Source: Chthoniobacteraceae bacterium
GTDB lineage: Bacteria > Verrucomicrobiota > Verrucomicrobiia > Chthoniobacterales > Chthoniobacteraceae
Reading direction: 5' to 3'
Assembly (NCBI GenBank): GCA_031409335.1
Contig: JANNWY010000079.1
Location: 1-32,580, forward strand
DNA length: 32,580 nucleotides
Shown here piece by piece: positions 4,937 to 28,552 of the stretch (the first letter of the stretch is position 1; each line of letters opens with the position of its first letter). Below the pieces are notes generated by a model. It was not told the DNA's origin. It did no database searches and was given only the letters and a program-made list of their open reading frames with translations. The position numbers and the translations under genes are program-made.

Positions 4937-5131
4937 TTAATCACGTTTCCGTGTCGAAATGCCGTTGGCGAGAATGACTACTCGCACTCCAACCCAAAAG
5001 CTAAGAATGCTTGGAACCCAAATGCCTACGAATAGGCCATACTCGTGACTGAAAAAAAACCAGAGCGAAACGCTCGCTACAAAGCTAACAAAGGCTCCGA
5101 TCAGGAATGGGTAGTCGATCTTGTGAAACAT
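4937..5131 (-). CDS. Small two-helix membrane protein, 64 aa, with a GLFVGIWVP motif
   Basis: MFHKIDYPFLIGAFVSFVASVSLWFFFSHEYGLFVGIWVPSILSFW...; the motif is shared with the protein at 8939-9154. Confidence 0.7.
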   Translation of the reverse strand: MFHKIDYPFLIGAFVSFVASVSLWFFFSHEYGLFVGIWVPSILSFWVGVRVVILANGISTRKRD

Positions 5132-5157
5132 GGCAGGGAAATGAAAATCACACACCT

Positions 5158-5204: not shown

Positions 5205-5687
5205 TTATGGGATGAGGACGGTGTCGATGACGTGGATCACGCCATTGCTGGCAGCGATGTCAGTCTTGACTACGTTCGCTGCGCCGATAGTGACCTTGCC
5301 GCCGTCCACTTTGATTGCGGCTTCCTTGCCGTTCACTGTCTTGGCGCTCATGGTCTTCACATCCGCAGCCATGACCTTGCCGGCCACGACGTGATAGGTC
5401 AGGATGCCTGCGAGCTTCGCCTTGTTCTCAGGCTTGAGCAGGTCCTCCACCGTGCCCGCTGGAAGCTTCTTGAACGCATCATCGGTCGGCGCGAAGACCG
5501 TGAACGGTCCTTTGCCGTTGAGGGTATCGACCAGCCCGGCCGCTTTGACCGCGGCGACGAGGGTGTTGAACTGTCCGGCACCGGCGGCTACGCCGACAAT
5601 GGTTTTTTCCTCGGCAGCAGAGAGGTTGTTGGTGATGAGGGTGAGGGCCGCGGCAACGGCTGTGACGATTAAGGATGATTTCTTCAT
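5205..5687 (-). CDS. Secreted fasciclin (FAS1) domain protein, MPB70/Nex18-like
   Basis: Signal peptide; [37 protein letters not shown] and [14 protein letters not shown] are classic FAS1 motifs. Confidence 0.95.
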
Positions 5688-5749: not shown

Positions 5750-5776
5750 TAACGCGCCACGGTGCAAAGTGGCTGC
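5750..5776 (-). promoter_or_regulatory. Putative ECF sigma promoter GCAGCC-N16-CGTTA upstream of the fasciclin gene
   Basis: Minus strand: GCAGCC (5776-5771), 16-nt spacer, CGTTA (5754-5750), about 60 nt before the ATG. Same spacing as the sites at 7457-7483 and 7545-7571. Confidence 0.55.
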
Positions 5777-5794: not shown

Positions 5795-7435
5795 TCACTC
5801 AGCCTGCGCATCCGCTTTGCGCCGACGGGCGTTTGCGAGGGGTTTCTTCACCGCCACTCCGCAGTCGGCGCGAGTCAGCATGGCTTGCGCCTGAATAGCA
5901 GCCTTCTCATCGTCCCGGAGTCGCTTGAGATTGCGCACTTGCATGACGATGCGCGGGTTTTTCGCGAGCACAGCCTCGTGGCGCAGCAGGAAGTCCCAGT
6001 AAAGCGTGGTGAAGGGACAGGCGCGCGGGCCGGTGCGTTCGGCGGGATCGAAGCGGCAACCCGTGCAGTAGTTCGACATGCGCTGGATGTATTTGCCGCT
6101 GGCGATGTAGGGCTTTGAGGCCATCACGCCACCATCGGCGTATTGCGACATGCCGAGGGTGTTGGGTAGCTCCACCCATTCCACGGCATCGACATAGACG
6201 GAAAGATACCAGGCATGGATCTCGCGCGGGCGGACGCCGACTAGCAGTGAGAAGAGTCCGGTGACCATGAGCCGCTGGATGTGGTGCGCGTAGCCATGGT
6301 CGAGCGTCTGGCGGAGCGCGTGGCGCAGGCAGTTCATCTCGGTCTCGCCGGTCCAGTAGAACGGTGGCAGCGGCTGGTCGGCAGCGAGCGTGTTGCGCTC
6401 GAGATAGCCAGGCATGAAGCGCCAGTAGATGCCGCGCACGAATTCCCGCCAACCGAGGATTTGCCGGATGAAACCTTCCACGCTTGCGATCGGCGCGCGC
6501 TTTTTGCGCCATGCGCTCTCGGCGGCGGCGAGGACTTCGCGTGGATCGAGCAGCTTGAGATTCAGCGCAGCGCTGAGGCGTGAGTGGTACAGCCACGGTT
6601 CGCCTGACCACATCGCATCTTCCCAGCGTCCGAAGTCGGGGAGCCGGTGCGCGATGAAATCGTCGAGCGCCTCGCGTGCCTCGGCGGCGGTCACGGGCCA
6701 GTCGAAGTGATCCAATTCACCCGGGTGCTTGGCGAAACGCGCGGATACCATCGTCAGCACCTCGCGTGTGGTCTTGTCCGGCAGGAAGCGGCGCGGCGCG
6801 GGAAGCAAGCCGGGGCCGTCTTTGCCGAAGGATTCACGATTCTCATGATCGAAGTTCCACTCGCCGCCAGCGGGCTTGCCGTCATCCATGAGCACACCCG
6901 TCTTCTGCCGCATCTCGCGGTAGAAAAATTCCATGCGCAATTGCTTGCGGCCATCTGCGTGCGCGGCGAACTCCACGGCGTCGCAGAGAAAATGGCGATC
7001 GGTGCGGATCTCCAGCGGCACCCCGGCGGCACTGGCAGCCGCCATCAGTTCCTCGCGCACGCTCCACTCACCGGGCTCGACGACGATGAGCTTCGCGGGA
7101 CGACTTTGCGCGATGGTCCACGCGAGCTGAAGGGCAAAGGTCTCCCCGGGATTTCCTTTGTCCGGCAGTCCGCTCCAGTCCGCATTTTTGTCGGTGAGCG
7201 CGCGGTAAAAAACGCGCCATCCGCGTTTGCACAACGCGTCCCGAAAGTGGCGCATCGCCGCGAGAAAGATGGCAATGCGCGGCTTTGAAACCCAGACTTT
7301 TTCCGATTCGTGGGCGACCTCGGCCATCCAGATGGCATCCTGCTTCGGATCGAAACCATCGAAGGCTGCCGAGTGCTCATCCAGTTGGTCGCCAAGGATG
7401 AGGATGAGATTTTGCAGAGGCGCGCCGGGTTTCAT
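5795..7435 (-). CDS. FeS-cluster bacterial cryptochrome/photolyase (FeS-BCP; prokaryotic (6-4) photolyase/CryB class)
   Basis: LILILGDQL N-terminus, RMEFFYR, EGFIRQILGWRE, HHIQRLMV, DAVEWVELPN, KPY and cysteines (MNC...NYCTGC...ACPF) matching the 4Fe-4S ligand pattern. Start set at ATG 7435 (MKPGAP...). Confidence 0.93.
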   Translation of the reverse strand: MKPGAPLQNLILILGDQLDEHSAAFDGFDPKQDAIWMAEVAHESEKVWVSKPRIAIFLAAMRHFRDALCKRGWRVFYRALTDKNADWSGLPDKGNPGETFALQLAWTIAQSRPAKLIVVEPGEWSVREELMAAASAAGVPLEIRTDRHFLCDAVEFAAHADGRKQLRMEFFYREMRQKTGVLMDDGKPAGGEWNFDHENRESFGKDGPGLLPAPRRFLPDKTTREVLTMVSARFAKHPGELDHFDWPVTAAEAREALDDFIAHRLPDFGRWEDAMWSGEPWLYHSRLSAALNLKLLDPREVLAAAESAWRKKRAPIASVEGFIRQILGWREFVRGIYWRFMPGYLERNTLAADQPLPPFYWTGETEMNCLRHALRQTLDHGYAHHIQRLMVTGLFSLLVGVRPREIHAWYLSVYVDAVEWVELPNTLGMSQYADGGVMASKPYIASGKYIQRMSNYCTGCRFDPAERTGPRACPFTTLYWDFLLRHEAVLAKNPRIVMQVRNLKRLRDDEKAAIQAQAMLTRADCGVAVKKPLANARRRKADAQAE

Positions 7436-7456: not shown

Positions 7457-7483
7457 ATACGATCGCCAGGCCGTTCCGGCTGT
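7457..7483 (-). promoter_or_regulatory. Putative ECF sigma promoter ACAGCC-N16-CGTAT upstream of the FeS photolyase
   Basis: Minus strand: ACAGCC (7483-7478), 16-nt spacer, CGTAT (7461-7457), about 22 nt before the ATG at 7435. Confidence 0.55.
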
Positions 7484-7544: not shown

Positions 7545-7571
7545 GTATCCAAACGCGCGACGACGGCGTAA
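7545..7571 (+). promoter_or_regulatory. Putative ECF sigma promoter GTATCC-N16-CGTAA upstream of the anti-sigma/PAS gene
   Basis: GTATCC (7545-7550), 16-nt spacer, CGTAA (7567-7571), with an AT-rich tract upstream (7524-7537); about 48 nt before the ATG at 7619. Confidence 0.55.
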
Positions 7572-7618: not shown

Positions 7619-8188
7619 ATGAACGAATTCCTGCAAGACCAAGCCGCTCTTTACGCTGCGGGCACAATGACGATTGAAGAGCGCGAGCAGTTTGAACTCG
7701 TTGTGGAGTGCCACTGCGAACTCCGCTCTTTTGTCAGTGGACTTGTCGAGGTCGGCTCGGCGGTGATGTTGGCCAACCCACCAAGCGTTGGTGTGGCGCC
7801 TTCGCCGGGTTTGAAGGCGCGACTCTTGGGCGCGATCGCTGGTCGCCCGCAGCATTCCCGTGCGGGCGTGGTGATGTGCGGGCCCGACCGTCTTGTCCAG
7901 TGGGTCAATCCAGCTTTCAGCGAAATGTGCGGATATACGATCGACGAACTGCGCGGAAAGAGTCTTGGTCCGATCCTGCAAGGAGCGAAGACCGATCGCG
8001 AGACGGCTGAGCGGATGCGCCTCGCAGTGCATGAATATCGCCCGTGCCGCGAGACGATTCTCAACTATCACAAGAACGGCGCGCCTTACTGGGTCGAAGT
8101 TGCGATCACGCCGATCCGTGATGACGCGGGTGAGCTGCTCTGGTTTGTCGCGCAGGAACGCGAACTCACCGACCGTGTCGCCGCTTAG
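7619..8188 (+). CDS. Soluble fusion of an RskA-like anti-sigma domain and a LOV-like PAS domain, 189 aa
   Basis: N-terminus QAALYAAGTMTIEEREQFE...APSPGLKARLLGAI resembles anti-sigma-K N-terminal domains. C-terminus VNPAFSEMCGY...GKSLGPILQGAKTD...ILNYHKNGAPYW...TPIRDDAG is a PAS/PAC domain of the LOV-like type. No TM helix. ATG 7619 preferred over the ORF-track start at 7310. Confidence 0.8.
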   Translation: MNEFLQDQAALYAAGTMTIEEREQFELVVECHCELRSFVSGLVEVGSAVMLANPPSVGVAPSPGLKARLLGAIAGRPQHSRAGVVMCGPDRLVQWVNPAFSEMCGYTIDELRGKSLGPILQGAKTDRETAERMRLAVHEYRPCRETILNYHKNGAPYWVEVAITPIRDDAGELLWFVAQERELTDRVAA

Positions 8189-8216
8189 GTAAGCGCTCGA
8201 ACGCCGGTGGCCGACG

Positions 8217-8795
8217 CTACATGTCGGGATTCAGTAGGTCTCTAAGGCGGAGCATCCCACGACGAATCCGTGCTTTGATCGTCCCAAGCGGCTCCTTCAG
8301 CCGTTCGGAAATTTCGGTCTGGGTGAGGGAGGAAAAGAACGCGAGTTCGATCGCTTCGCGCTGGTCTTTCGAGAGCTTTTGAATCGCCTCGCGGACCATC
8401 TTGCTCGTCTCGCCAGACGCCAGCGCATCGAATGAACTGCGGTCGTCGAATTGCTCGAACGTCTCGGACTCGCGCTGCACGTCGTCTTGCAATCGGCTCC
8501 GGCGCTGCGTGGAGCGCAGCCGGTCGATCGCCTTGTTTCGCGTGAGCGTGACCGCCCAGGTCATTGGCTTGCCGCGCGCCGGATCGTAGAGCGGTGCCTT
8601 TTCCCAAATCTGAACGAAGACATCCTGGAGCACATCCTCCGCGGCTTCCTGATTGTTCAGCACGCGATAAGCGGTGGAAAACAACACGCCCGAAAACCGA
8701 TCGTAAAGCTCCTCAAATCCGACCCGGTCGCCTTGCGCGACGCGGCGCAAAAGCGCGATCTCAGCTACCAGTTGTTGTTCAGGATCGAGTTCCAT
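8217..8795 (-). CDS. ECF RNA polymerase sigma factor, SigK-like, 192 aa
   Basis: Region 2: GDRVGFEELYDR, AEDVLQDVFVQIW, YDPARG, RNKAIDRLR. Region 4: LTQTEISERLKEPLGTIKARIRRGM. Start at ATG 8795. Confidence 0.93.
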   Translation of the reverse strand: MELDPEQQLVAEIALLRRVAQGDRVGFEELYDRFSGVLFSTAYRVLNNQEAAEDVLQDVFVQIWEKAPLYDPARGKPMTWAVTLTRNKAIDRLRSTQRRSRLQDDVQRESETFEQFDDRSSFDALASGETSKMVREAIQKLSKDQREAIELAFFSSLTQTEISERLKEPLGTIKARIRRGMLRLRDLLNPDM

Positions 8796-8938
8796 GGACC
8801 GGCAGCTTGATGGAGCCCGCGCGCGCCGACAACAAAAACCGCGACACAAAAACCGCATTGTCGGCGTCCACGCGGCCAACTATGGACGAAGGCAACATCG
8901 ACGTTCTCTCACCCAAACTCACCAAACCACCGCGCCAC

Positions 8939-9154
8939 ATGAAACCCGCCCAACTCAAACAACTCAGCAATCTCTGCTTCATCCTCGGCTTTGCCTCCAT
9001 CCTCGGCTCCATCGCCATCTGGTTTCTGACTGGTGGACAGGCCCCCGACACCCAGGCTCACGCCGAGCGTTTCGGCATCTTCGTCGGACTGTGGGCGCCG
9101 ACCTTTTTCATCCTCTCGAATCGCTTCGACCGCTACGCGGAAAAGGCGGTCTGA
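8939..9154 (+). CDS. Small two-helix membrane protein, 71 aa, with an ERFGIFVGLWAP motif
   Basis: MKPAQLKQLSNLCFILGFASILGSIAIWF...HAERFGIFVGLWAPTFFILS; host-like codon usage; first gene of a plus-strand run. Confidence 0.75.
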   Translation: MKPAQLKQLSNLCFILGFASILGSIAIWFLTGGQAPDTQAHAERFGIFVGLWAPTFFILSNRFDRYAEKAV

Positions 9155-9165
9155 GCGCGCGGGAC

Positions 9166-10401
9166 GTGACTCTTCCTCCGCTCGCCCGCCACGAGGCGTT
9201 GGCCGCATGGCAGGCTTTTCTGTCGCGCGTGACGGGATACGCGGCGCGGCGAAATCATGTCGCGGTGGGGCATCGCGATGTCTCGCGGCTGAGCGCGGCG
9301 CTGCGTCATCGGTTGCTCACCGAGGACGAGGTCATCCGCGACACGCTGGAGCATCATAGTTTTAGCTCCGCGGCAAAGTGGCTGCAGGAAGTCTGCTGGC
9401 GGCGCTACTGGAAAGGCTGGCTGGAGCTGCGTCCGCAGGTCTGGACGAGCTGGCGGCAGCGCGTGCGCGAGTTGCGCGAGACTTTGCCGGCGGAGCTTTT
9501 GGCAAAGACGGACGCCGTGGCTGCGGGCGCGAGTGGCGTCGCCTGCATGGACGCCTTCGCGCGCGAACTGATCGACACCGGCTACCTCCACAATCACGCG
9601 CGGATGTGGTGGGCGAGTTTCTGGATTCACGCGGAGCGCCTGCCGTGGGAACTCGGCGCCGACTTTTTCTTTCGCCACCTGCTTGATGCCGATCCCGCCA
9701 GCAACACGCTCTCGTGGCGCTGGGTGGCCGGCTTGCAAACGCCCGGCAAGACTTACCTCGTGCGCCGATCGAATCTCGAAAAATATGCGCCCGAATATCT
9801 GCTGCGGCATGAGCGTGGCAGTGATCGCATCGCCGATGGCGCAGTCGCGCCATGCCCGCAGCAAGAGCGGGCCGACACTTCCAAACTAGTCCCGCGCGCC
9901 CATCCCACCACCCTGCCTGCGATCTCCGCGCGGGCAGGCCTGTGGCTGCACGCGGATGATCTCGCGCCGGAGATCGGCCCGCTCGCGGCGTTCACTCCCA
10001 CCGCCGTGGCCGCCTTCACCAGCGAACGAATCTATCGGCAGCACTACGCCCTGAGCGCCGCTCGCATCGCCGCCCTGCGCACGGTGCTCGGCGATGGCAT
10101 CGCCCGTGCCGCTGCGCACTATCGCTGTCCAGCCGCGCTGCTGGATGCCGACGACACCGCGACCAGCCTCACCGAATGGGCGCGCTCGCAGCACCTCGCG
10201 GAAGTCGTCGCCTTCGCGCCCGCCGTCGGTCCGATCCATGATCTCATCCCGCGGCTTTCCCAACATCTCGACCAATCGAGCATCCGTCTCACCCTCATCC
10301 AGCGCCCGTCCGATGCGCTCGCATTTTCCCTCGCCGGCGGTGGGTTCTTTCCCTTCTGGGAAAAGATGAGCCGTCACCTGCGCCCGCTCGTCGTCGCATG
10401 A
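9166..10401 (+). CDS. DNA photolyase family protein with N-terminal FAD-binding domain (inverted domain order, NewPHL-like)
   Basis: Begins directly with the helical catalytic domain (YAARRN, VSRLSAALRH, QEVCWRRYW, TGYLHNHARMW, LLDADPASNTLSWRWVAG); an alpha/beta-type region follows C-terminally. Likely GTG start at 9166. Confidence 0.82.
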   Translation: MTLPPLARHEALAAWQAFLSRVTGYAARRNHVAVGHRDVSRLSAALRHRLLTEDEVIRDTLEHHSFSSAAKWLQEVCWRRYWKGWLELRPQVWTSWRQRVRELRETLPAELLAKTDAVAAGASGVACMDAFARELIDTGYLHNHARMWWASFWIHAERLPWELGADFFFRHLLDADPASNTLSWRWVAGLQTPGKTYLVRRSNLEKYAPEYLLRHERGSDRIADGAVAPCPQQERADTSKLVPRAHPTTLPAISARAGLWLHADDLAPEIGPLAAFTPTAVAAFTSERIYRQHYALSAARIAALRTVLGDGIARAAAHYRCPAALLDADDTATSLTEWARSQHLAEVVAFAPAVGPIHDLIPRLSQHLDQSSIRLTLIQRPSDALAFSLAGGGFFPFWEKMSRHLRPLVVA

Positions 10402-10652
10402 AAGCAGCGCTCTCGCCGGATCAGATTTCCCACCTCATCCGGCTCGCGTGGGAAGATCGCACCAGCTTCGAGGAGATCGAAGAGCGCACCGGTCTGGTCG
10501 AAAGCCAGGTCATCGCCGTGATGCGCCGCGAGCTGAAACCCGCGAGCTTTCGCCTCTGGCGGAAAAGGGTCAGCGGTCGCATCACAAAACATCGCGCGCT
10601 GCTGGAGCGCAGCCTCAAAAGATCGCAGACCCGCGACGCGGAAAATGAGTAA
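10398..10652 (+). CDS. TIGR03643/DUF2805-like small protein
   Basis: AWEDRTSFEEIE...VIAVMRRELKPASFRLWRKRVSGRITKH matches the family as I recall it; ATGA-coupled to the photolyase. Confidence 0.85.
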   Translation: MKAALSPDQISHLIRLAWEDRTSFEEIEERTGLVESQVIAVMRRELKPASFRLWRKRVSGRITKHRALLERSLKRSQTRDAENE

Positions 10653-10778: not shown

Positions 10779-10823
10779 GCGCAAAAGGAACCGGCATGAT
10801 CTGTGGGCCGCGACCGCATTGAC

Positions 10824-13800
10824 ATGAGTGAAAACAAGAATCTTCCGGTGGAGACGCCAGCCCGAAGTGAACCGTCCGGGGAGCCGCCTTTGGTCGTGTT
10901 CGGTGAAACGCGGACGGTGCTCGAGGCGATCCTTTTTACCGACATCGAAGGATCGGTGCGCCTCGAACAGGAGATCGGGACGAAGGCGTATGCGGAGGTG
11001 CTGCGGCGGCACGGCGAACTCTTTTATGAAGCACTGAGCCGGGCGGTGACGGGCAACGTCGAGAAGCACACGGGCGATGGTTTTATGGCGCGTTTTGGCA
11101 GTCCGAGCGATGCGGTGACCGTGGCGCTGCATTTCCAGTGGCTGCTGCGGCGCGAGTCGTGGGGGAGGCCACGGCCGTTGCGGGTGCGGATCGGCATTCA
11201 TCAGGGCGAGTTTATGCTGATCACTTCGCAGTATGAGATGCCGAGCGCGGTGGGGGCACCGGTGAATTTGGCCGCGCGTGTGCAATCGCTCGGGCAGGGC
11301 GGCCAGGTGCTGTTGACTCGTGGAGTGTTCGACAATGCGCGCCAGTTCGTGCGGGCGATCCCAAATGTGCCCGCTGCCGAACAGGCCGAACTCGGCTGGC
11401 AGGCGCACGGCCCGTATCTGTTGAAAGGCATCGAGGGGCCGGTGGAGATTTTTGAAGTCGGCGAGCGCGGCTTTGCCCCGTTTGAGCCACCGCCGAGCGA
11501 TGCTTCCGCGAAGCGCTCCGTCTCCGCGGAGGAGGAGGCAGCGCTGGGCTGGCGACCCGCGAAGTCGATGGAAGTGCCGAAGCGGCCCGGCTGGTTCTTG
11601 CAGCAGAAAGTGGGGGAAGGCGGCTTCGGTGAAGTGTGGCTGGCGGAGAATCGGCAAACGTCGGAACGGCGGGTCTTCAAGTTTTGCTTCGATGTGGTGC
11701 GGCTGCGCTCGTTCAAGCGCGAGCTGCTGCTCTTTCGCTTGATCCGCGAGGCGCTCGGGCCGCGGCGCGATATCGTCACGCTTTACGAAGTGCAGATCGA
11801 TACGCCGCCGTTTTTTTTGGAAAGCGAATACTGCTCGGGCGGCACGCTGGCGCAGTGGTTCCAGGCATCCTCGGCAAATGGCGGCGTTCCAGTTTCCGCG
11901 CGGCTGGAAATCATCGCCCGCATCGCGCGGGCGCTCGCCGCGGCGCATTCCGTCGGCATCATCCACAAGGATGTGAAGCCCTCGAATATCTTCATCGAGG
12001 AACTCGGCGGCGGCGTGGTGCGACCGCGCCTCGCGGACTTTGGCATCGGCGTGCTGATCGATCGCGCGACGGCAGCGCATCATCATCTGACGATGACCGG
12101 AGGCCTGACGGTCGCCGCGGAACCAAGCCGCACCGGCACGCGGATGTACAGCGCGCCAGAATACATGGTCGATCGGCCACCGTCGATTCAGGGCGATATC
12201 TATTCGCTGGGCGTGTTGCTATTCCAAATACTGGTGGGCGACTTCGAGCGCCCGCTCGGCCCCGGCTGGCGGCGTGATATCGGCGATCCGCTGCTGGTGG
12301 AGGACATCGCGATGTGCGTGGATGTCGAGCCGCAGCGGCGCTTCAGCAGTGCGCTGCAAGTGGCGGAGCAACTCGAGACGCTGGAGCAGCGGCGGACGGC
12401 GGTGCAGGCGGAGGAGGAAGCGGCGCGACGCGAGGAAGCGCAGCGCTGCCAGCTTGAGACATTTCGCAAACGGGTGCGGCTGGGTGTCATCGGCAGCATC
12501 GTCGCGCTGACGCTGATCGGTGCCCTGAGCGCGCTCGTGCTCGTGCTGGATCGCTCGCGAAAAGACGCGCTGAAGAACGAAGCCGCGCTGAAGGTCCAGC
12601 GTGAAATCGCCGAAGATCGCGCCTACGTGGCCGACATGCAGACGGCGACGGATGACATGGCACAGCGGCGCGGCGAGATGACGCGGGAAATCATCGAGCG
12701 ATACCGGCCAAAACCGGGAGAGCGCGATCGGCGCGGTTGGGAATGGTTTTTTGTCGATTCAGTCCTGAACACGCCGGGCCTCGCGAAAAAGGTTTCCACT
12801 TCACCCCTGCGCGCAATGGCGGTGAGCGTGGATGAAAAGCATGTCGCCGTGGGCGGCGACGATGGCGAGGTTTCCATCTGGTCCTCCGAAACGCTCGAAA
12901 GGATGGCCGTCTGGCGGCCGTCGAACGATGCAGTGCGCGCGCTCGCCTGGCAAAGCGCGGGCGCGCTTGCGATCGGCCTCGCGAGTGGCGAAGTCTCGGT
13001 GGTTGCCACTCCGCTCACGCCGACGGAGACCCAGCGCTGGCAGGCGCATCGCGGCGCGGTGAATGCGCTCGACTGGCATCCCCGGCTGGGGCAGCTCGCG
13101 AGCGGCGGCGCGGACGGGCGGATTGCCTTTTGGAGTCCGACCGGCGAGCCCTTGCGCGAGGCGCGCAAGGAAGCGCCCGTGCAGGCGGTGGCGTGGCAGC
13201 CGGACGGCAGCGAACTCGCGGCGCTTTACGGGCAGCCGCTGCATCTCGTGGTCGCGAGCCCGGAGCAAATCGAGCACGGCCAGGCGACGCCGTTAAATGT
13301 GGACGATTCGCCGCTCGTGTGGCGGCCCGGTGGAAAAGAGGTGGCTATCGCTTCGCGGGACTTGCCGATGCGCTCATGGGATCCGCGCGCGGGCGGCGAC
13401 TCGTTTTCGCTGCCGGGCTTTTTCAGCGCAGGAGGCACCGCTTACGCCTGGTCGCCAAACGGCAGTGGGATCGCAGTCGGAAGTGTGGACGGAAAAATAG
13501 TGCTCGTCGATGTGCGCCTCCTCGCCGAACCGCGGATCGCCCTTTACGGACACAAAGGACCCGTCGCCGGCCTCCGGTGGCTCGGCAAACCGGGCGAACG
13601 GCTCGTCTCGATCGGCCAGGATGGAACGCTGCGCGTGTGGACCGACCTGTGGCAGGCTCCGCAAATCACGCAGGTCAATTCCCCCGAAACGATCGCCGAC
13701 GCGCAATGGCACCCAGGCGAAAACAAGCTGGCGCTTTTGATCGCCGGCGACGAGGTGCGGATCGCGCGCGGCGACTCGGGGGAGACGGAGCAGACGTGGG

Positions 13801-15653
13801 TGATGCCGCCGCCGCACAGCCCGCGCACGCCTTATCGCGGCGGTCGGATCGCGTGGAGCCCGGATGGAAAATGGCTCGTCGCGATCAGCCCGGGCCGGCC
13901 ACTCGCGGTGTGGAATGCGGGCGATGGCAGTGTGCGAATCCCCCCAGCGACGGGCGATGAACGCGAGGTGCAATGGATGGCCGACAGCCGGCGCTTGCTC
14001 GTGCGCGGAGCGGCGGGCTGGTCGTGGTGCGCGGTGGATGGCGGAAAAAGCGCCGCCATTCCCGAAACGGAAAACGTGCTCTGGATGGCGGGCGTGGAAG
14101 GCGAACAGATCGGCATGGTGACGCGCACTGGCCGGGAATTGCGGTTCGTGAAAAGGAACCTCGCTGGCGGAGCGCCCGCCCTCGATGTCGCGCTTCCCGC
14201 CGAGCTGGGGATCGTGCGTTGTGGCGTAATGAATCCCACCCGCTCGCTGCTGGCGCTCGGCGGCGAGACGGGCACCGTCGCGTGGGTTGATACGCGCACC
14301 GGCGCGGCGTCGAGGCCGGCGATCACCCACGGTGGCGCAGTCCACGCGCTCGGGTGGCACCCGGACGGCTCGCGACTCGCGAGTACCGGTGCCGATGCGC
14401 TGTGCCGCATTTTCAATATCGCGCAGACCGCGCAGACGTGGGTGATCGCGCACAAGTTGCAGAGCAGCGTGGTGGCCACCGGGTGGAGCGCCGATGGGCG
14501 GCAGCTCCTGCTGGCCTCGTCGGATCCCAGTCGGAGGCTCGTCAAGCTCTACGACGCATCACTTTCGATGGACCTCGCGCAAGGCGTGGCACCGAAACCG
14601 GCGGCGGCGGCATCGGGAAAAATCGCGGTGGCCTGCGCGACGATTGCGCGCGAGTCGGACGACGATGCGGGCTGGCTGGCGCTCGCGCGGGAGATTCGCA
14701 AAGCGCCGGATGGCGGCGCGCAGGCCGGCAAGGATTTACTTTTGGCGGCGATGGAACTCGGAGCGCAGGGCCGTTTCAGCATGGATCGCGAGCCACCCTC
14801 GCAAACTGCCGCGCAAAGCTGGGAGGGCGTGCCGCTGCCGATGGCGGTGCAAGTGGCGCAAGCCTGCGTGCTGCGCCGCTGGGAGGAAGTCGTGCAACTT
14901 TGCCGGGAGTCGCGGGAAACGTGGTTCCTGCTCGCGCGGGCGGAAGCGCTGTTGCGGCTCGATCGTCGCGACGAAGCCGAGGCCGCGAACCTCGCCGCGT
15001 GGCACGCACTGCGCCGCCAGCAGGGGACAGCGGGTGATGTTTTTTCGCCGAGTGCAAATGCGCCGGGGGAAAGTGTGAACCTCGGCCCGTGGGCGAACAT
15101 CAAGCTCAACGAGAATTGGTGCGGCGGTGAAAACAATCATCTCGCGTCGCTGCCCGCGCTCGTGCCGCAGCCGGACGGGATCGACTTTCGTTGCGGCGAT
15201 TTCCTGCAGCTCGCCAGCAAAGGCTTCCGCGTGAGCGGCGGCCACATGCTCCCGCGCAGCACGGGCTGGATGCCCTTTGCGCGGCCCGCCCGCCGCGTGG
15301 CCGCCATGGTCGCCTCATGCCAGGTGAATCCGCAGGAACATCTGGACAACATCGTGATCGGCAGCCTCTTCCTGCTCCGCAGCGGTGGCCGCGGCGCGGT
15401 GCGCATCCCGCTCGCGTACGGGCGCAATATTTGGGATTGGTGGTCGCCCGCAGTCGGTTGGGTGACCGATGCGACGCCGGAGGTCGTGGCGTGGCGGGGC
15501 ATGAATGAGCACGCCGAAAAAAAGCAAAAATCACTGGCGCTCTTTCGCATCCCATGGGGCGAGCAGGATGGCCAGCCAGTCGTCGCCGCGTCCATCGTTT
15601 CCCACCTGCGCGCACCGGCACCGATGCTCATGGCGCTTTCTTTTGAGGAATAG
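10824..15653 (+). CDS. Class III nucleotidyl cyclase + Ser/Thr protein kinase + TM helix + WD40 repeats + C-terminal domain (about 1609 aa)
   Basis: Cyclase: ILFTDIEGS, KHTGDGFM, RVRIGIHQG, VNLAARV. Kinase: GEGGFGEVW, VFK, HKDVKPSN, DFG, GTRMYSAPE, DIYSLG. TM: LGVIGSIVALTLIGALSALVLVL. Multiple H...V..L.W.PDG WD40 repeats. Confidence 0.9.
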   Translation: MSENKNLPVETPARSEPSGEPPLVVFGETRTVLEAILFTDIEGSVRLEQEIGTKAYAEVLRRHGELFYEALSRAVTGNVEKHTGDGFMARFGSPSDAVTVALHFQWLLRRESWGRPRPLRVRIGIHQGEFMLITSQYEMPSAVGAPVNLAARVQSLGQGGQVLLTRGVFDNARQFVRAIPNVPAAEQAELGWQAHGPYLLKGIEGPVEIFEVGERGFAPFEPPPSDASAKRSVSAEEEAALGWRPAKSMEVPKRPGWFLQQKVGEGGFGEVWLAENRQTSERRVFKFCFDVVRLRSFKRELLLFRLIREALGPRRDIVTLYEVQIDTPPFFLESEYCSGGTLAQWFQASSANGGVPVSARLEIIARIARALAAAHSVGIIHKDVKPSNIFIEELGGGVVRPRLADFGIGVLIDRATAAHHHLTMTGGLTVAAEPSRTGTRMYSAPEYMVDRPPSIQGDIYSLGVLLFQILVGDFERPLGPGWRRDIGDPLLVEDIAMCVDVEPQRRFSSALQVAEQLETLEQRRTAVQAEEEAARREEAQRCQLETFRKRVRLGVIGSIVALTLIGALSALVLVLDRSRKDALKNEAALKVQREIAEDRAYVADMQTATDDMAQRRGEMTREIIERYRPKPGERDRRGWEWFFVDSVLNTPGLAKKVSTSPLRAMAVSVDEKHVAVGGDDGEVSIWSSETLERMAVWRPSNDAVRALAWQSAGALAIGLASGEVSVVATPLTPTETQRWQAHRGAVNALDWHPRLGQLASGGADGRIAFWSPTGEPLREARKEAPVQAVAWQPDGSELAALYGQPLHLVVASPEQIEHGQATPLNVDDSPLVWRPGGKEVAIASRDLPMRSWDPRAGGDSFSLPGFFSAGGTAYAWSPNGSGIAVGSVDGKIVLVDVRLLAEPRIALYGHKGPVAGLRWLGKPGERLVSIGQDGTLRVWTDLWQAPQITQVNSPETIADAQWHPGENKLALLIAGDEVRIARGDSGETEQTWVMPPPHSPRTPYRGGRIAWSPDGKWLVAISPGRPLAVWNAGDGSVRIPPATGDEREVQWMADSRRLLVRGAAGWSWCAVDGGKSAAIPETENVLWMAGVEGEQIGMVTRTGRELRFVKRNLAGGAPALDVALPAELGIVRCGVMNPTRSLLALGGETGTVAWVDTRTGAASRPAITHGGAVHALGWHPDGSRLASTGADALCRIFNIAQTAQTWVIAHKLQSSVVATGWSADGRQLLLASSDPSRRLVKLYDASLSMDLAQGVAPKPAAAASGKIAVACATIARESDDDAGWLALAREIRKAPDGGAQAGKDLLLAAMELGAQGRFSMDREPPSQTAAQSWEGVPLPMAVQVAQACVLRRWEEVVQLCRESRETWFLLARAEALLRLDRRDEAEAANLAAWHALRRQQGTAGDVFSPSANAPGESVNLGPWANIKLNENWCGGENNHLASLPALVPQPDGIDFRCGDFLQLASKGFRVSGGHMLPRSTGWMPFARPARRVAAMVASCQVNPQEHLDNIVIGSLFLLRSGGRGAVRIPLAYGRNIWDWWSPAVGWVTDATPEVVAWRGMNEHAEKKQKSLALFRIPWGEQDGQPVVAASIVSHLRAPAPMLMALSFEE

Positions 15654-22090: not shown

Positions 22091-25000
22091 TCACCGGTCA
22101 GCGAGGCTGTGAATGGTGCCGTGGATGGAGCGGTCGATGGCAGTGCCGTCTGGCGCGCGGAGTTTGACGAGGAGTTCGTAGCAATCGGTCGGCGCGAGAT
22201 CGGGGATGGTGAGCGTGATGATGCTCGGGCCACCGCCCAGACGCGCGGCGGTGATGGTCTGCGCGTGTTCGTCGTGGTGTTTCGAGCCGTAGCTTTTCGT
22301 GCGTTTGAGCGACCACACTTTCATCGCGAAGGCATCAGGCGTGACGCTGTTGGGATCGAGCGGCTCGCTGAATGTCACGGTGAGCGTGCCCTTCGCCGCG
22401 TGGATGGCGAGCGGGACGTGCGCGGGGTTTTCGCCGCGGCGGATGCGATGGAATCCACCGGGCGCGGTCGCGTTTCCGGCCCATGCAAACATGCCGCAGG
22501 TGTAGAGCGCGCCGTCCGCGGCGAAGCGTCCGCGCATGATGCCGGTGGTGAACGCGGGCATCGGTAGTTCGCACACCGCGCCCTGCCATTGGCCGCCGGC
22601 TTGTTCATTTGGAATAATGAATGCGCGACCTGTGCCGTAGCTGAGATTCAGCAGCGCGCCACCGAGGGTGCCCCACGCGCCTTTGGGAACGGTGACCAGT
22701 TCAGCCGGGCTGCGATCTTTGTCATTTGTCACCCACACCATCGGCTGCGCCATCGCGGAATCGGCGGTGTCCGTGACGTCCGTGTAGCCAAACATATTTC
22801 CGTAAAAACCGCCGACCTTCACGCGGTTGATGCGGTTCTTCGGTGTCCAGAAGCCTTCCTGATCGGTGACGAAAAATGTGCCGTCCTCGTTGAGGCACAC
22901 CCCATTCGCCGCGCGAAAGCCCGTCGCCAAAATGTCCGTGCGCGTGCCATCCGCACTGATGCGCAGGAGCGTGCCATGATGCGGGATGACGCTGTCGAGT
23001 GCGTGGCGGCCCGACTTGGCGTAGTAGAAATTTCCCGCGTCATCCGTCTGCAAACCCATCGCAAATTCGTGGAAGTGCTCGGTCACTTGATGGTCGTCAT
23101 TGAAGCACTCGATGAAGTCCGTCTCGCCGTCGCCATTCAAGTCGCGCAGTCGCGCAAGTTGATCGCGGCAGGTGATGAAAAGTTCGTCGCCGCGAAACTT
23201 CACGCCGAGCGGCTGGAAGAGTCCGGTGGCGATGCGCCGCCACGTGAGCGGCGACGGCGCGGGCACCATGAGCCCGTCCACGCGCCACACATCGCCGTTC
23301 CACATCGCGACCACCGCGGATTTGCCATCCGGCGTGAAATCGAAGCCGCCGGGCCGCATCCAGCTCTGCCATGGATTTTCAATCGGGAGCGGAAAGGTGT
23401 CCGTGATGAATGCGCCGTCTGCCTTGCCCGCTTCGGATGTCGTGGTGATTTCCTGGATCCACTGCCGCGGCCCGCCGCGCGTGAGCGGTTCGAGATCGAG
23501 CGGCGTGGTGAAGGTCTTTGCCAGTGCATCGAGCGACGCCGCATCCGCGCGGGAAATGAACAAGCGGGTCTTCGCGTCACCGGGCAGCGTTGCGACCCAA
23601 AAGCCGCCATCCTTTTTAACACTCCCGTCGCCGGTCAGCGCCACGCTCAGCGAGTCCGGCGCGACGCGCAGCAGCAGCGGCTTTTTTTCCGGGGCGACAT
23701 TGAGCGTTCTCGTGAAAACGGGCGTCGTGCCGTAGTCGAGCCAGCCGGGCGATTCGAGCACGCGCGTGCCGCCGATGCGCGCGGCGATGACTGCGCGTGC
23801 GCCGTGCATGTACATTCCCTCGAACCGCGCCCAAGCGCGCGGCAGCGGGCCGTAGCGTTTGCCGTCTTTGCCGAGCACGCGCTTGTCGTCGTCCCATTTT
23901 CCCTCTGGCGACGCCCAGCCAGGGCCAGTCGGATTGATGAAATGCCGCTCGCCCGTGAGGCTCGTGTGCGTGCCGTGGCTGCCGTCAAATGCGATGCCTT
24001 TCCAGTCCGCGAAATCGCCCGTCGTCGCCGTCGCCACGCGCATCGTGTCGTGGTCGTAAATCATCCACGCGCGACCTTTGCTCACGCCGCCGGGGCCGTC
24101 GTCGAGCCGCACGGCGATTCCCTTTTGCGCGATGTTTCCCGGCGCGATTTCATAAGTCCAAAACAACGCCGGGCCGAAATCCATGAGGCGGTAAGGCGGC
24201 AGCGAGCGGTCTTCTTTTTCCGCCTCCGCGCGCACGAGCGCTTTCGGCAGCGATGCCAAATACGCGGGCGTGATTTCCGTGAACTGTGTCTTGTTGTGCG
24301 GACGCAGGAACGTCTCGCGGATGTATTGAATCACCGCGTATTTCTGCGCCGTCGTGTATTGCGGTTGTGGCACCATTTGCCCGAAGCCCTTCGTCATCGT
24401 GGCAAACATCGAGAACGGGTCCGCGCCGTTTTTGAACGGCCCTTCCGCGAAGCGCAGCGCCGTCGGCAGCGAGCCCGGCTGCTCCTTCGTCCCGTGGCAG
24501 ACGACGCACAGCGTTTTGTAAATCTCCGCGCCCTCCGCGAGCGTCTTGTCATTCCAGCCGCCCAGGATTTCCGCGTGGTCGCTGCGCTCCAAAGCCTGCA
24601 TCCATGCCGCGCGCACGGTCACGCCCGCCGCTGGCTCGATGCTCGGACGCACGCCGCCGCTCGTCGGCGTGTGGGTTAAATCCGGCGTGTTCGCACCCGC
24701 ACCACCGGCTTTGAAAAGCAGCGCGATCTCCGCATCCGGCAGCGCCCGCGACCACACGCGCACGCCCGCGATTTTGCCTTTTGAAAAATCCCCCGCGAAG
24801 TCCGGCGTGGCGCGTCCGACTTTGAAAACGTGTCCCGCGACATCCGCCGTCGCGTGCGCCGTCTTCTCCGCGACGACCTTCCCATCGAGCCACAAGCGCG
24901 CCACGCCGCCGCGCAGCGTGAGCACCGCCGTGTGCGTCTTGCCGTCGTCCACTTTCCCCCCGCCCGTCATCGTGCCGAGCCAGCCGATGTCGTACACCAG

Positions 25001-25504
25001 CCGCCCGTCGCGGATGAAAAGCGCTTTCGCACCCGCCGCCCATTTGCCGGTCGGCGCGCATTTGGAAATCAACGTCCCATCGTCGCCCGTCTCGAACTTT
25101 GCCTCAGCCGTGAAGTCCGCGCCGAGATCGAGTTCGGCGTCGGGAAAATTCTGCGCTCCGCTCGCCGAAAGCCCCGCAATTTCCTCCGGCCCGCGCACGA
25201 GTTTTCCGCCCGACCACACCCGCAAAACCGGCGCACCCTTCGCCGGATGCTCGACCGCGACATCATGCTCCGCGCCCTTCGCCAGCGGCACGACGACCTC
25301 TTTCCCCAGCCGCAACGCTCCGCCCGTCGGCGCGGAAAACTCGACGTGCAGCCGGTAGTTCAGCGGCAGCTCCGCGGCATCCAGCGGCACGGCATCGCGC
25401 GGCAGCGCGGCGTCGAGCGATGAGATGAATGGGAGTAAGAGGACGAATGTGGTGGTGAGTTTGCGGAGGGTCGCGGAGGTCATAGTTTGGTTTGTTGCGC
25501 TCAT
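22091..25504 (-). CDS. Large secreted protein: LamG-like domain + c-type cytochrome + DUF6797-like domain + beta-propeller
   Basis: Signal-like N-terminus; DGKTHTAV...LWLDG...VWSRAL (LamG); CVVCH heme motif at 24494-24508; MDFGPAL...KGIAVRL; GLFQPLG, TDQEGFWTP propeller blades. Start ATG 25504 (ATGA overlap) or 25483. Confidence 0.8.
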   Translation of the reverse strand: MSATNQTMTSATLRKLTTTFVLLLPFISSLDAALPRDAVPLDAAELPLNYRLHVEFSAPTGGALRLGKEVVVPLAKGAEHDVAVEHPAKGAPVLRVWSGGKLVRGPEEIAGLSASGAQNFPDAELDLGADFTAEAKFETGDDGTLISKCAPTGKWAAGAKALFIRDGRLVYDIGWLGTMTGGGKVDDGKTHTAVLTLRGGVARLWLDGKVVAEKTAHATADVAGHVFKVGRATPDFAGDFSKGKIAGVRVWSRALPDAEIALLFKAGGAGANTPDLTHTPTSGGVRPSIEPAAGVTVRAAWMQALERSDHAEILGGWNDKTLAEGAEIYKTLCVVCHGTKEQPGSLPTALRFAEGPFKNGADPFSMFATMTKGFGQMVPQPQYTTAQKYAVIQYIRETFLRPHNKTQFTEITPAYLASLPKALVRAEAEKEDRSLPPYRLMDFGPALFWTYEIAPGNIAQKGIAVRLDDGPGGVSKGRAWMIYDHDTMRVATATTGDFADWKGIAFDGSHGTHTSLTGERHFINPTGPGWASPEGKWDDDKRVLGKDGKRYGPLPRAWARFEGMYMHGARAVIAARIGGTRVLESPGWLDYGTTPVFTRTLNVAPEKKPLLLRVAPDSLSVALTGDGSVKKDGGFWVATLPGDAKTRLFISRADAASLDALAKTFTTPLDLEPLTRGGPRQWIQEITTTSEAGKADGAFITDTFPLPIENPWQSWMRPGGFDFTPDGKSAVVAMWNGDVWRVDGLMVPAPSPLTWRRIATGLFQPLGVKFRGDELFITCRDQLARLRDLNGDGETDFIECFNDDHQVTEHFHEFAMGLQTDDAGNFYYAKSGRHALDSVIPHHGTLLRISADGTRTDILATGFRAANGVCLNEDGTFFVTDQEGFWTPKNRINRVKVGGFYGNMFGYTDVTDTADSAMAQPMVWVTNDKDRSPAELVTVPKGAWGTLGGALLNLSYGTGRAFIIPNEQAGGQWQGAVCELPMPAFTTGIMRGRFAADGALYTCGMFAWAGNATAPGGFHRIRRGENPAHVPLAIHAAKGTLTVTFSEPLDPNSVTPDAFAMKVWSLKRTKSYGSKHHDEHAQTITAARLGGGPSIITLTIPDLAPTDCYELLVKLRAPDGTAIDRSIHGTIHSLADR

Positions 25505-28377: not shown

Positions 28378-28552
28378 GCGAATGGGTGTTGGGCTCATTG
28401 TTCTACGATGGCTGCGGGTTCTCCGAGCGCATCCATCTTCAGCGAAATGCCAAGGCCCGGTGTGCTGATTTTCAAATTCATCACGTCCATCGCGAGGTCC
28501 GCTTTTTTACGCGGCGGAAGTGCGACGCGCCAGGCAAGGATGCGGGTGTTTT

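Follow-up and report, generated by a model that had tools for sequence, protein, structure and literature searches.

The locus described here lies on contig JANNWY010000079.1 (contig C79 in our numbering) of a Chthoniobacteraceae bacterium (Verrucomicrobiota; assembly GCA_031409335.1), whose 7.9-Mb genome is 98% complete; the window is the whole stretch of 32,580 nt that was analysed. It contains a gene for a soluble protein of 189 amino acids (aa), in which a putative anti-sigma domain is fused to a C-terminal PAS domain, and, 28 nt away (8189–8216), a convergent gene for a SigK-like extracytoplasmic function (ECF) sigma factor (Table 1). Both the convergent layout and the position of the pair between two photolyase genes had been proposed in a first-pass annotation made from the sequence alone. 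The coordinates of the two open reading frames (ORFs) bear out the former, and both photolyases were identified, the right-hand one beyond a small membrane protein gene.

Table 1. Features of the anti-sigma-PAS/sigma locus and its flanks, in window coordinates.
Feature	Position	Strand	Remarks
Anti-sigma-PAS fusion gene	7619..8188	+	ATG 7619, TAG 8188; 189 aa, soluble
Class I anti-sigma domain (predicted), residues ~1–76	7619..7846	+	four helices, without HxxxCxxC
PAS domain, LOV fold, without photoactive Cys	7856..8170	+	Pfam, structure comparison
Cys104 codon, MCG motif	7928..7930	+	invariant in fusion family
VAA at C-terminus, candidate ClpXP degron	8177..8185	+	directly behind last PAS strand
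Predicted ECF promoter of anti-sigma gene	7545..7570	+	GTATCC-N16-CGTA
SigK-like ECF sigma gene, convergent	8217..8795	-	ATG 8795, stop 8217; 192 aa
Probable weaker promoter of FeS photolyase gene	7458..7483	-	degenerate -35, N16, CGTA
CryB/PhrB-type FeS photolyase (DPRP) gene, probable regulon member	5795..7435	-	E 3e-152
Probable fasciclin-gene promoter	5751..5776	-	GCAGCC-N16-CGTT
Fasciclin (MPT70-like) gene, probable regulon member	5205..5687	-	
Small membrane protein gene without family	4937..5155	-	recurs in 13/77 loci
71-aa membrane protein gene	8939..9154	+	recurs in 10/77 loci; between sigma and right photolyase
Photolyase gene, FAD_binding_7 domain N-terminal (inverted topology)	9133..10401	+	start codon uncertain
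DUF2805 / TIGR03643 gene	10398..10652	+	

No Pfam family matched the N-terminal half of the fusion protein, which is why databases name the family only 'PAS domain protein'. The NCBIfam anti-sigma model NF052375 matches the domain (E 1.7e-4), below that model's whole-protein cut-off, and a profile of 48 N-domains retrieved RslA (3HUG_B) as the sole credible match in the PDB (E 0.0019). Searched against 1.84 billion representatives, the profile found 424 proteins at E 0.001 or better. A domain scan of the best 150 of these (117 scanned, 33 short fragments left out) gave as partners a PAS domain (32), a transmembrane (TM) helix with RskA_C (34), a ChrR cupin (Cupin_7; 3), or no informative C-terminal family (48). 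Helices are predicted at residues 3–14, 19–31, 33–52, and 65–73, as a three-helix bundle with a fourth helix, and the first ten rows of a Foldseek search were all class I anti-sigma domains (RskA, ChrR, RsiW, RslA, and MucA), with RskA at the top (probability 0.98), yet at E-values of 0.17 or weaker. The HxxxCxxC zinc motif occurs in 0/119 close relatives; a zinc switch via C31/H32/C33 of this copy was ruled out, given that Cys31 is found in 4/120 sequences and the family has no zinc motif. Hydropathy revealed no TM helix (the best 19-residue value is 1.23, whereas the RskA-type protein of this genome reaches 1.71; values above 1.6 in 17/119 fusion relatives vs. 16/20 RskA-type proteins), and Pfam found no RskA_C domain in the 189-aa protein. 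Sequence profiles and predicted structure place the N-domain, which profiles detect and Pfam does not, among the zinc-free class I anti-sigma domains of RskA descent, in agreement with the earlier assignment of residues ~1–75 as an RskA-type domain joined to PAS without a TM helix. Taken alone, the anti-sigma role of the protein is very probable.

The sigma factor has the Pfam domains Sigma70_r2 and r4_2. Its best solved relative is Mycobacterium tuberculosis SigK (4NQW, E 5.5e-28), followed by Rhodobacter sphaeroides SigE (E 2.2e-21); the best-scoring NCBIfam models, PRK12519 and SigK, are both under cut-off. It contains no cysteine at all, and so lacks the two sigma4 disulfide cysteines of SigK. 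The modelled complex of fusion and sigma scores 0.89, against 0.28 for the best of three controls; the score mark is reached by 116/157 solved complexes and 2/215 mismatched pairs, counts that are only roughly valid for a model made with our own alignments and including flavin mononucleotide (FMN). Runs share at least 89% of contacts, with a partner pLDDT of 91. In the model, helix 1 packs on sigma4 and residues 36–81 on the rest of sigma; linker residues 76–81 contact sigma, and no PAS residue beyond 81 lies in the confident interface. This predicted geometry agrees with that published for class I pairs, in which helix 1 sits on sigma4 and helix 4 on sigma2 (PMC7406223). Two further close sigma paralogues are encoded elsewhere in the genome (contig C99, 7054–7629, 84%; contig C279, 39517–40128, 75%), neither with an anti-sigma neighbour; the C99 copy has as neighbours the same 71-aa membrane protein gene and a duplicated fragment of an activator. 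It is possible that several sigmas are held by a single fusion protein.

The C-terminal half matches PAS_9 (Pfam, E 7.7e-16) and superposes on the flavin protein CagFbFP with 37% identity and a root-mean-square deviation (rmsd) of 0.9 Å over 105 columns. In a wide structure search, LOV domains score Z 18.3, and flavin-free EAG and ERG PAS domains tie with them (Z 18.2 and 17.8). Among 186 full-length fusions (locus counts here and below include kin, are not independent, and none is a statistical test), three LOV residues are kept, namely Q121 (182), R134 (174), and N149 (186), and three are replaced: the second flavin Asn by Val (V159, 174/186), Gly by Ala (A178, 183/186), and Gln by Glu (E180, 183/186). 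The photoactive position (GxNCRFLQ) holds no Cys, residue 116 being Leu in 142/186 fusions and Pro in 42/186, and the helix of this site carries a one-residue insertion relative to LOVs. Four of the nine residues that define natural Cys-less LOV* domains are retained (criteria from PMC4682037; mapping by eye from alignments). In natural Gln-less LOVs, charged residues are rare at the Gln position (PMC9098866), and the F-alpha Trp conserved in the FAD-PAS domains of NifL/Aer/MmoS (PMC10468136) has no counterpart in helix 127–138, which contains no Trp. Long signalling proteins of this phylum have PAS domains with largely the same LOV-residue replacements, which therefore appear to mark an uncharacterised PAS subfamily. 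A canonical LOV photoreceptor is ruled out on these residues. The description of the domain as LOV-like therefore stands for the fold but not for the flavin/cysteine motif, and the suggestion of light sensing through a LOV photocycle finds no support, the photoactive Cys being replaced along with the second flavin Asn and the signalling Gln.

Three features go beyond the first-pass annotation: an invariant Cys104, a sigma-type promoter on the anti-sigma gene, and a C-terminal VAA tag. Cys104 is present in 186/186 fusions (a redundant set) vs. 0/17 PAS domains of long proteins, and, in a diverse set, in 21/22 fusions vs. 0/13. Related PAS domains of long signalling (kinase-type) proteins have Thr or Ser at this position, and all 11 short or truncated PAS proteins have the cysteine. 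Cys104 would correspond to Thr50 of PYP and Thr438 of LOV2, residues bordering the ligand cavity; a literature search on the LOV2 residue equivalent to C104 found nothing. A C104–C143 pair was rejected as the sensor: C143 is found at 175/186 loci, but varies in distant members (12/22) and occurs in 4/17 long proteins. A search by PAS region for longer fused forms returned 13 unrelated kinases, cyclases, and phosphatases (weak evidence). Three stand-alone PAS proteins with a coiled coil (L087, L089, L096) also carry the cysteine; their neighbours are uninformative.

Of 77 loci collected from genomes, 74 are full-length. The promoter pattern, G[TCA][AG]TC[CT]-N16-CGTA within 110 nt upstream, was derived from the same set of fusion genes in which it was first counted: the strict motif precedes 65/74 fusion genes (one locus excluded, upstream DNA lacking) and 0/55 sigma genes; spacers of 12–15 and 17–20 give 0–1 hits, and shuffles 0.085. 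In held-out metagenome loci it was found in 62/75, and it also lies upstream of 4/5 sigK-rskA operons from other genomes. It fits the ECF18 consensus (TGCATCTT, CGTA) given in the supplement of PMC7826278, and ECF18/19 promoters are described with ATC at -35 and CGTA/CG at -10 (PMC7826278). The motif is probably used by this sigma, and the simplest reading of its presence on the anti-sigma gene and absence from the sigma gene is negative feedback without sigma autoregulation. A back-to-back minus-strand motif upstream of the fusion gene was set aside, being found in 11/66 only. Ahead of the sigma start by about 35–40 nt (window about 8810–8840), a TTGTCG element is kept in many loci, as seen by eye, and is possibly a housekeeping -35 box.

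Beyond the anti-sigma gene, a relaxed motif lies upstream of 11/19 fasciclin genes (control mean 0.7), and all 13 FeS-photolyase genes have CGTA 24–30 nt ahead of the start, with a degenerate -35. In a genome-wide scan, spacer 16 did not stand out (13 hits to the strict motif, with 2–21 at other spacers), so no regulon is claimed from the motif alone. In contig C30 (5945–7332), a CIA30-like + fasciclin gene stands behind a near-consensus motif, a candidate regulon member and a lead only. A consensus-like plus-strand motif also lies within the 3' end of the FeS photolyase gene (window 5808–5833), back to back with the fasciclin promoter (5776–5751, minus strand), and may be a relic or an antisense promoter; locus L052 has the same pair of motifs ahead of a 116-aa gene.

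The VAA terminus follows nine residues after E180, and there is no output helix behind the PAS domain. Proteins ending in AA make up 112/119 close relatives and 110/186 loci; after dereplication the counts are 30/73 at 70% and 12/43 at 60%, at which level 26/43 have a terminal Ala. For comparison, an AA end is found in 57 of 2665 genome ORFs (2%) and in 0/33 RskA-type proteins, and 302 of the ORFs end in A. After cleavage, RseA and RsdA are recognised by ClpX through a VAA degron (10.1101/491043), and this genome encodes ClpX; the tag is a candidate degron of the same type. Its place at the natural end of a soluble RskA descendant, directly behind the sensor, suggests that the PAS domain gates access to it.

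At E 0.001, 673 proteins match the fusion, and homologues with record titles come from Chthoniobacterales and other Verrucomicrobiota. A convergent sigma gene accompanies the fusion at 56/69 evaluable genome loci (those with at least 400 nt downstream), 47 of them within 200 nt, and a sigma gene is present at 42/66 evaluable metagenome loci. Of 151 genomes of the order, nine have a close fusion (E≤1e-83), and it is exactly these nine that also have a close sigma (E≤1e-94), with the two adjacent in eight. The wider sigma clade is found in 79/151 genomes; near-full-length fusion matches to a diverse profile are found in 31/151 (matches that begin no later than model position 16, all but two of them inspected), all 31 within those 79. 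In 5/5 orphan-fusion genomes checked, the best sigma adjoins an RskA-type gene, and a sample of 400 genomes of the phylum added eight others with full-length fusion matches. In a 26-row tree, the convergent-pair sigmas group with two unpaired paralogues from this genome in a single clade (98/94, bootstrap rough) among RskA-paired sigmas. Mean distances are 0.24 for PAS, 0.25 for sigma, and 0.45 for the N-domain; the sigma/anti-sigma distance correlation of 0.66 (53 pairs) is not taken as evidence of co-evolution since kin share distances. We infer that an RskA-type domain joined a PAS domain, first as a soluble second anti-sigma in trans, and that one lineage then gained its own sigma. Three genomes have tandem divergent anti-sigma-PAS genes with an extra helix-like linker (L213, L214, L215). 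Four short forms (L093, L097, L099, L232) seemingly lack anti-sigma helices 1–2 and keep the PAS domain and cysteine, two of them (L097 and L232) behind the promoter motif; these are possible decoys or anti-anti-sigmas.

Neighbours were clustered over 86 loci (74 genome loci and 12 wider regions; ORFs by our own heuristic). The recurrent families were fasciclin (20), SDR (15), lipocalin (13), DoxX (13), DPRP (12), Lon (10), fatty-acid desaturase (7), cyclopropane fatty acid (CFA) synthase (6), flavin amine oxidase (6), SOUL (6), FAD_binding_7 (FAD7) photolyase (6), DUF1365 (5), AhpC (4), CrtI-like (4), and Dps (3). The linkage to ECF and photolyase genes that had been expected thus holds for the sigma, as counted above, but photolyases are a minority (DPRP 14/77, FAD_binding_7 10/77). 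Members of the sigmaE regulon of R. sphaeroides include RSP2144, a homologue of CFA synthase, as well as RSP1091–1087, RSP1409, and RSP2143 (PMC3546557). The neighbourhood resembles this sigmaE-ChrR singlet-oxygen regulon and points to photo-oxidative stress in general. We take RSP1091–1087, RSP1409, and RSP2143 to cover amine oxidase, DUF1365, fasciclin, and photolyase genes. A furan-fatty-acid relay has been proposed for ChrR (PMC6852236); as no DUF1365 was found in this genome, a relay of that type cannot be assumed here. In one related group (L032, L041, L043, L044, L054, L055, L056), a Lon protease gene lies 1.5–3 kb past sigma.

Taken together, these observations are best accounted for by a functional analogue of ChrR in which a PAS domain stands in place of the cupin, a reading that we hold at a probability of roughly 0.55 for the whole chain. 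At rest, the N-domain would hold sigma regions 2 and 4, as in the modelled complex. The PAS domain would be the sensor because the two switches of its relatives are missing, there being no sigma cysteines for a disulfide and no zinc motif; photo-oxidative or redox sensing by this domain is the best inference. A cytoplasmic signal of this kind would act on the PAS pocket, probably via Cys104 or a bound small molecule, and would most likely expose VAA to ClpXP, by which the anti-sigma would be destroyed; this step is suggested by conservation of the tag and by analogy to the RseA/RsdA tags and to ChrR turnover. The freed sigma would then transcribe GYATCC-N16-CGTW promoters, namely those of the fasciclin gene, probably the FeS photolyase gene, and the anti-sigma gene, not the sigma gene, so that the response would shut itself off. 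A single protein may in this way turn on genes for DNA repair and for defence against light and oxidation stress.

Several points weigh against this chain. The ligand, the signal, and the degradation step are hypothetical, and Cys104 is placed at the pocket by analogy with other PAS structures. DUF1365 is not found in this 98% complete genome. The high score of the modelled pair, which accords with the proposed sigma/anti-sigma partnership, may reflect likeness to the solved SigK-RskA and SigE-ChrR complexes, and the FMN in the model lay outside the calibration. The genome has three close sigma paralogues, any of which might read the promoter. The genome's own sigK-rskA operon lacks the strict motif, as do many distant members of the family (0/4 in the Opitutae-like loci L071–74). 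It was likewise not found ahead of the genes for lipocalin (0/13), CFA synthase (0/6), amine oxidase (0/6), SOUL (0/6), and FAD7 photolyase (0/6); several of these sit inside operons, and their regulon link consequently rests on proximity among loci that are kin. The AA ending is less well kept in more distant relatives (4/13 at 50% dereplication, 6/21 library representatives), and a sigma gene is not nearby in 13/69 genome and 24/66 metagenome loci.

The alternatives differ in what the PAS domain does. It could be a direct photoreceptor, in which flavin or another chromophore, through photoreduction or a Cys104 adduct, releases sigma on illumination. The closest solved structures are LOV domains, Q121, R134, and N149 are retained, a Gln-to-Glu CagFbFP variant is among the solved flavin-protein entries (6YWI), photoreduction can serve Cys-less LOV proteins as a signalling route (PMC4682037), the locus lies between two photolyase genes, and ECF18/19 sigmas named LitS control light responses (PMC7826278). 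We nonetheless consider direct photoreception unlikely, since only 4/9 Cys-less-LOV residues are kept, the flavin Asn, Gly, and Gln have become Val, Ala, and Glu (the last in 183/186), natural Gln-less LOVs seldom have a charged residue at the Gln position (PMC9098866), and the flavin-free EAG/ERG domains score equally. The most explicit form of this idea, a one-protein light switch in which a LOV-derived PAS with relocated C104, re-shaped pocket, and non-canonical photochemistry exposes the ClpXP tag in the light and so frees the ECF sigma, is equally doubtful; if true, it would be a natural light-gated degron on an anti-sigma and would give a first handle on a large uncharacterised PAS subfamily that is also found in kinases.

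Release without proteolysis would instead have a ligand, thiol modification, or dimerisation of the PAS domain pull helix 4 off sigma2, the AA tail merely keeping free anti-sigma unstable. This fits the short linker by which PAS follows helix 4, the modelled contacts of linker residues 76–81 with sigma, the AA tail not being universal, and the truncated forms that retain helices 3–4 and PAS; it is somewhat less probable than photoreception, as the confident interface includes no PAS residue beyond 81, the tail is enriched more than ten-fold even after dereplication, and ChrR frees its sigma by turnover (PMC6852236). The fusion might, finally, be a damper only: induced by sigma and unstable at all times, it would be a second anti-sigma and set the rate of shut-off in a system for which membrane RskA is the sensor, the PAS domain of the fusion being structural or reading a general metabolite. 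The many orphan fusions, the pairing of the best sigma with membrane RskA in all five genomes checked, and the sigma promoter in front of the fusion gene are in line with such a role; conservation of PAS at the level of sigma, an invariant Cys that kinase-borne relatives lack, and a dedicated sigma clade without an RskA neighbour in the loci examined make it the least probable of these explanations.

Among known systems, a close one is SigK-RskA of M. tuberculosis (ECF19; RskA-type ECF18/19 pairs). It includes the best solved relative of the sigma and the best fold match of the N-domain, and shares with the pair a zinc-free class I domain, a fasciclin neighbour, an ATC/CGTA-type promoter, and a cytoplasmic form that ends in a ClpX-type tag (10.1101/491043). 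Unlike RskA, the fusion has a PAS domain and neither TM helix nor RskA_C, and its tag is the natural C-terminus and not one exposed by intramembrane cleavage; unlike SigK-RskA, the sigma is without disulfide cysteines, the genes are convergent, and the promoter is on the anti-sigma gene only. SigE-ChrR (R. sphaeroides, ECF11) and the cupin-fused ECF19s19 share with it a soluble anti-sigma domain with a C-terminal accessory domain, and SigE-ChrR also a photo-oxidative neighbourhood (photolyase, CFA synthase homologue, fasciclin). ChrR releases its sigma by turnover (PMC6852236), as is proposed here for the fusion; the fusion has PAS and not a zinc cupin, no zinc motif (0/119), no operon, and no DUF1365 found in the genome. 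LOV receptors and Cys-less LOV* domains (CagFbFP, BAT-LOV*) share the PAS fold and part of the flavin-site residues, whereas the fusion PAS lacks the photoactive Cys, has Asn, Gly, and Gln replaced, bears a different invariant Cys, is C-terminal, and has no output helix. In contrast to the LovK/PhyR/NepR and YtvA routes, the fusion would act on sigma directly, with no kinase or STAS cascade. The ZAS-MDMPI anti-sigmas of ECF19s7/s18 are soluble fusions of the same lineage (PMC7826278), but have an MDMPI accessory domain, a zinc motif, and a STAS partner.

The soluble anti-sigmas of ECF19 are described as carrying cupin or MDMPI domains (PMC7826278), and the fusion is not among the ECF18/ECF19 variants in the parts of that re-classification available, in keeping with the earlier statement that no characterised example was known. 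The accessible supplement (PMC7826278) mentions PAS twice, both in kinase contexts, and its full tables may hold the architecture; the whole word 'PAS' is absent from the main text of PMC7406223 and PMC8103513, and 'sigma' from the available text of PMC10468136. A literature search, with most subscription papers outside it, found no description of an anti-sigma-PAS fusion. The fusion appears to be a real, conserved form of class I anti-sigma control that resembles ChrR in action but is distinct from ChrR, from RskA, and from LOV receptors. One anti-sigma lineage would have a third kind of sensory partner, PAS, in addition to the RskA_C of membrane proteins and the cupin of ChrR. The two genes would form a complete circuit, for which a promoter is predicted, a cysteine can be named as candidate sensor, and a candidate protease tag is part of the protein itself. 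The route by which soluble anti-sigmas are destroyed under photo-oxidative stress is unsettled even for ChrR (PMC6852236); in the fusion, unlike in ChrR, a candidate destruction tag is visible. For the Verrucomicrobiota that abound in freshwater and soil, the circuit would provide a first model of how light and oxidant defence is regulated; were it gated by light, it would also be a compact orthogonal optogenetic switch.

Of the genes flanking the pair, the right-hand photolyase is, by inference, NewPHL-like (class as described in PMC7736829). Elsewhere in the window are genes for a 1616-aa protein with adenylate/guanylate cyclase, Ser/Thr kinase, and WD40 domains (10803–15653, plus strand), a 1221-aa laminin-G / cytochrome c / DUF6797 / SGL protein (22091–25756, minus strand), and a 965-aa metallopeptidase-like protein with NPCBM (25501–28398, minus strand), which has a weak ATLF Pfam match below cut-off (E 0.03).

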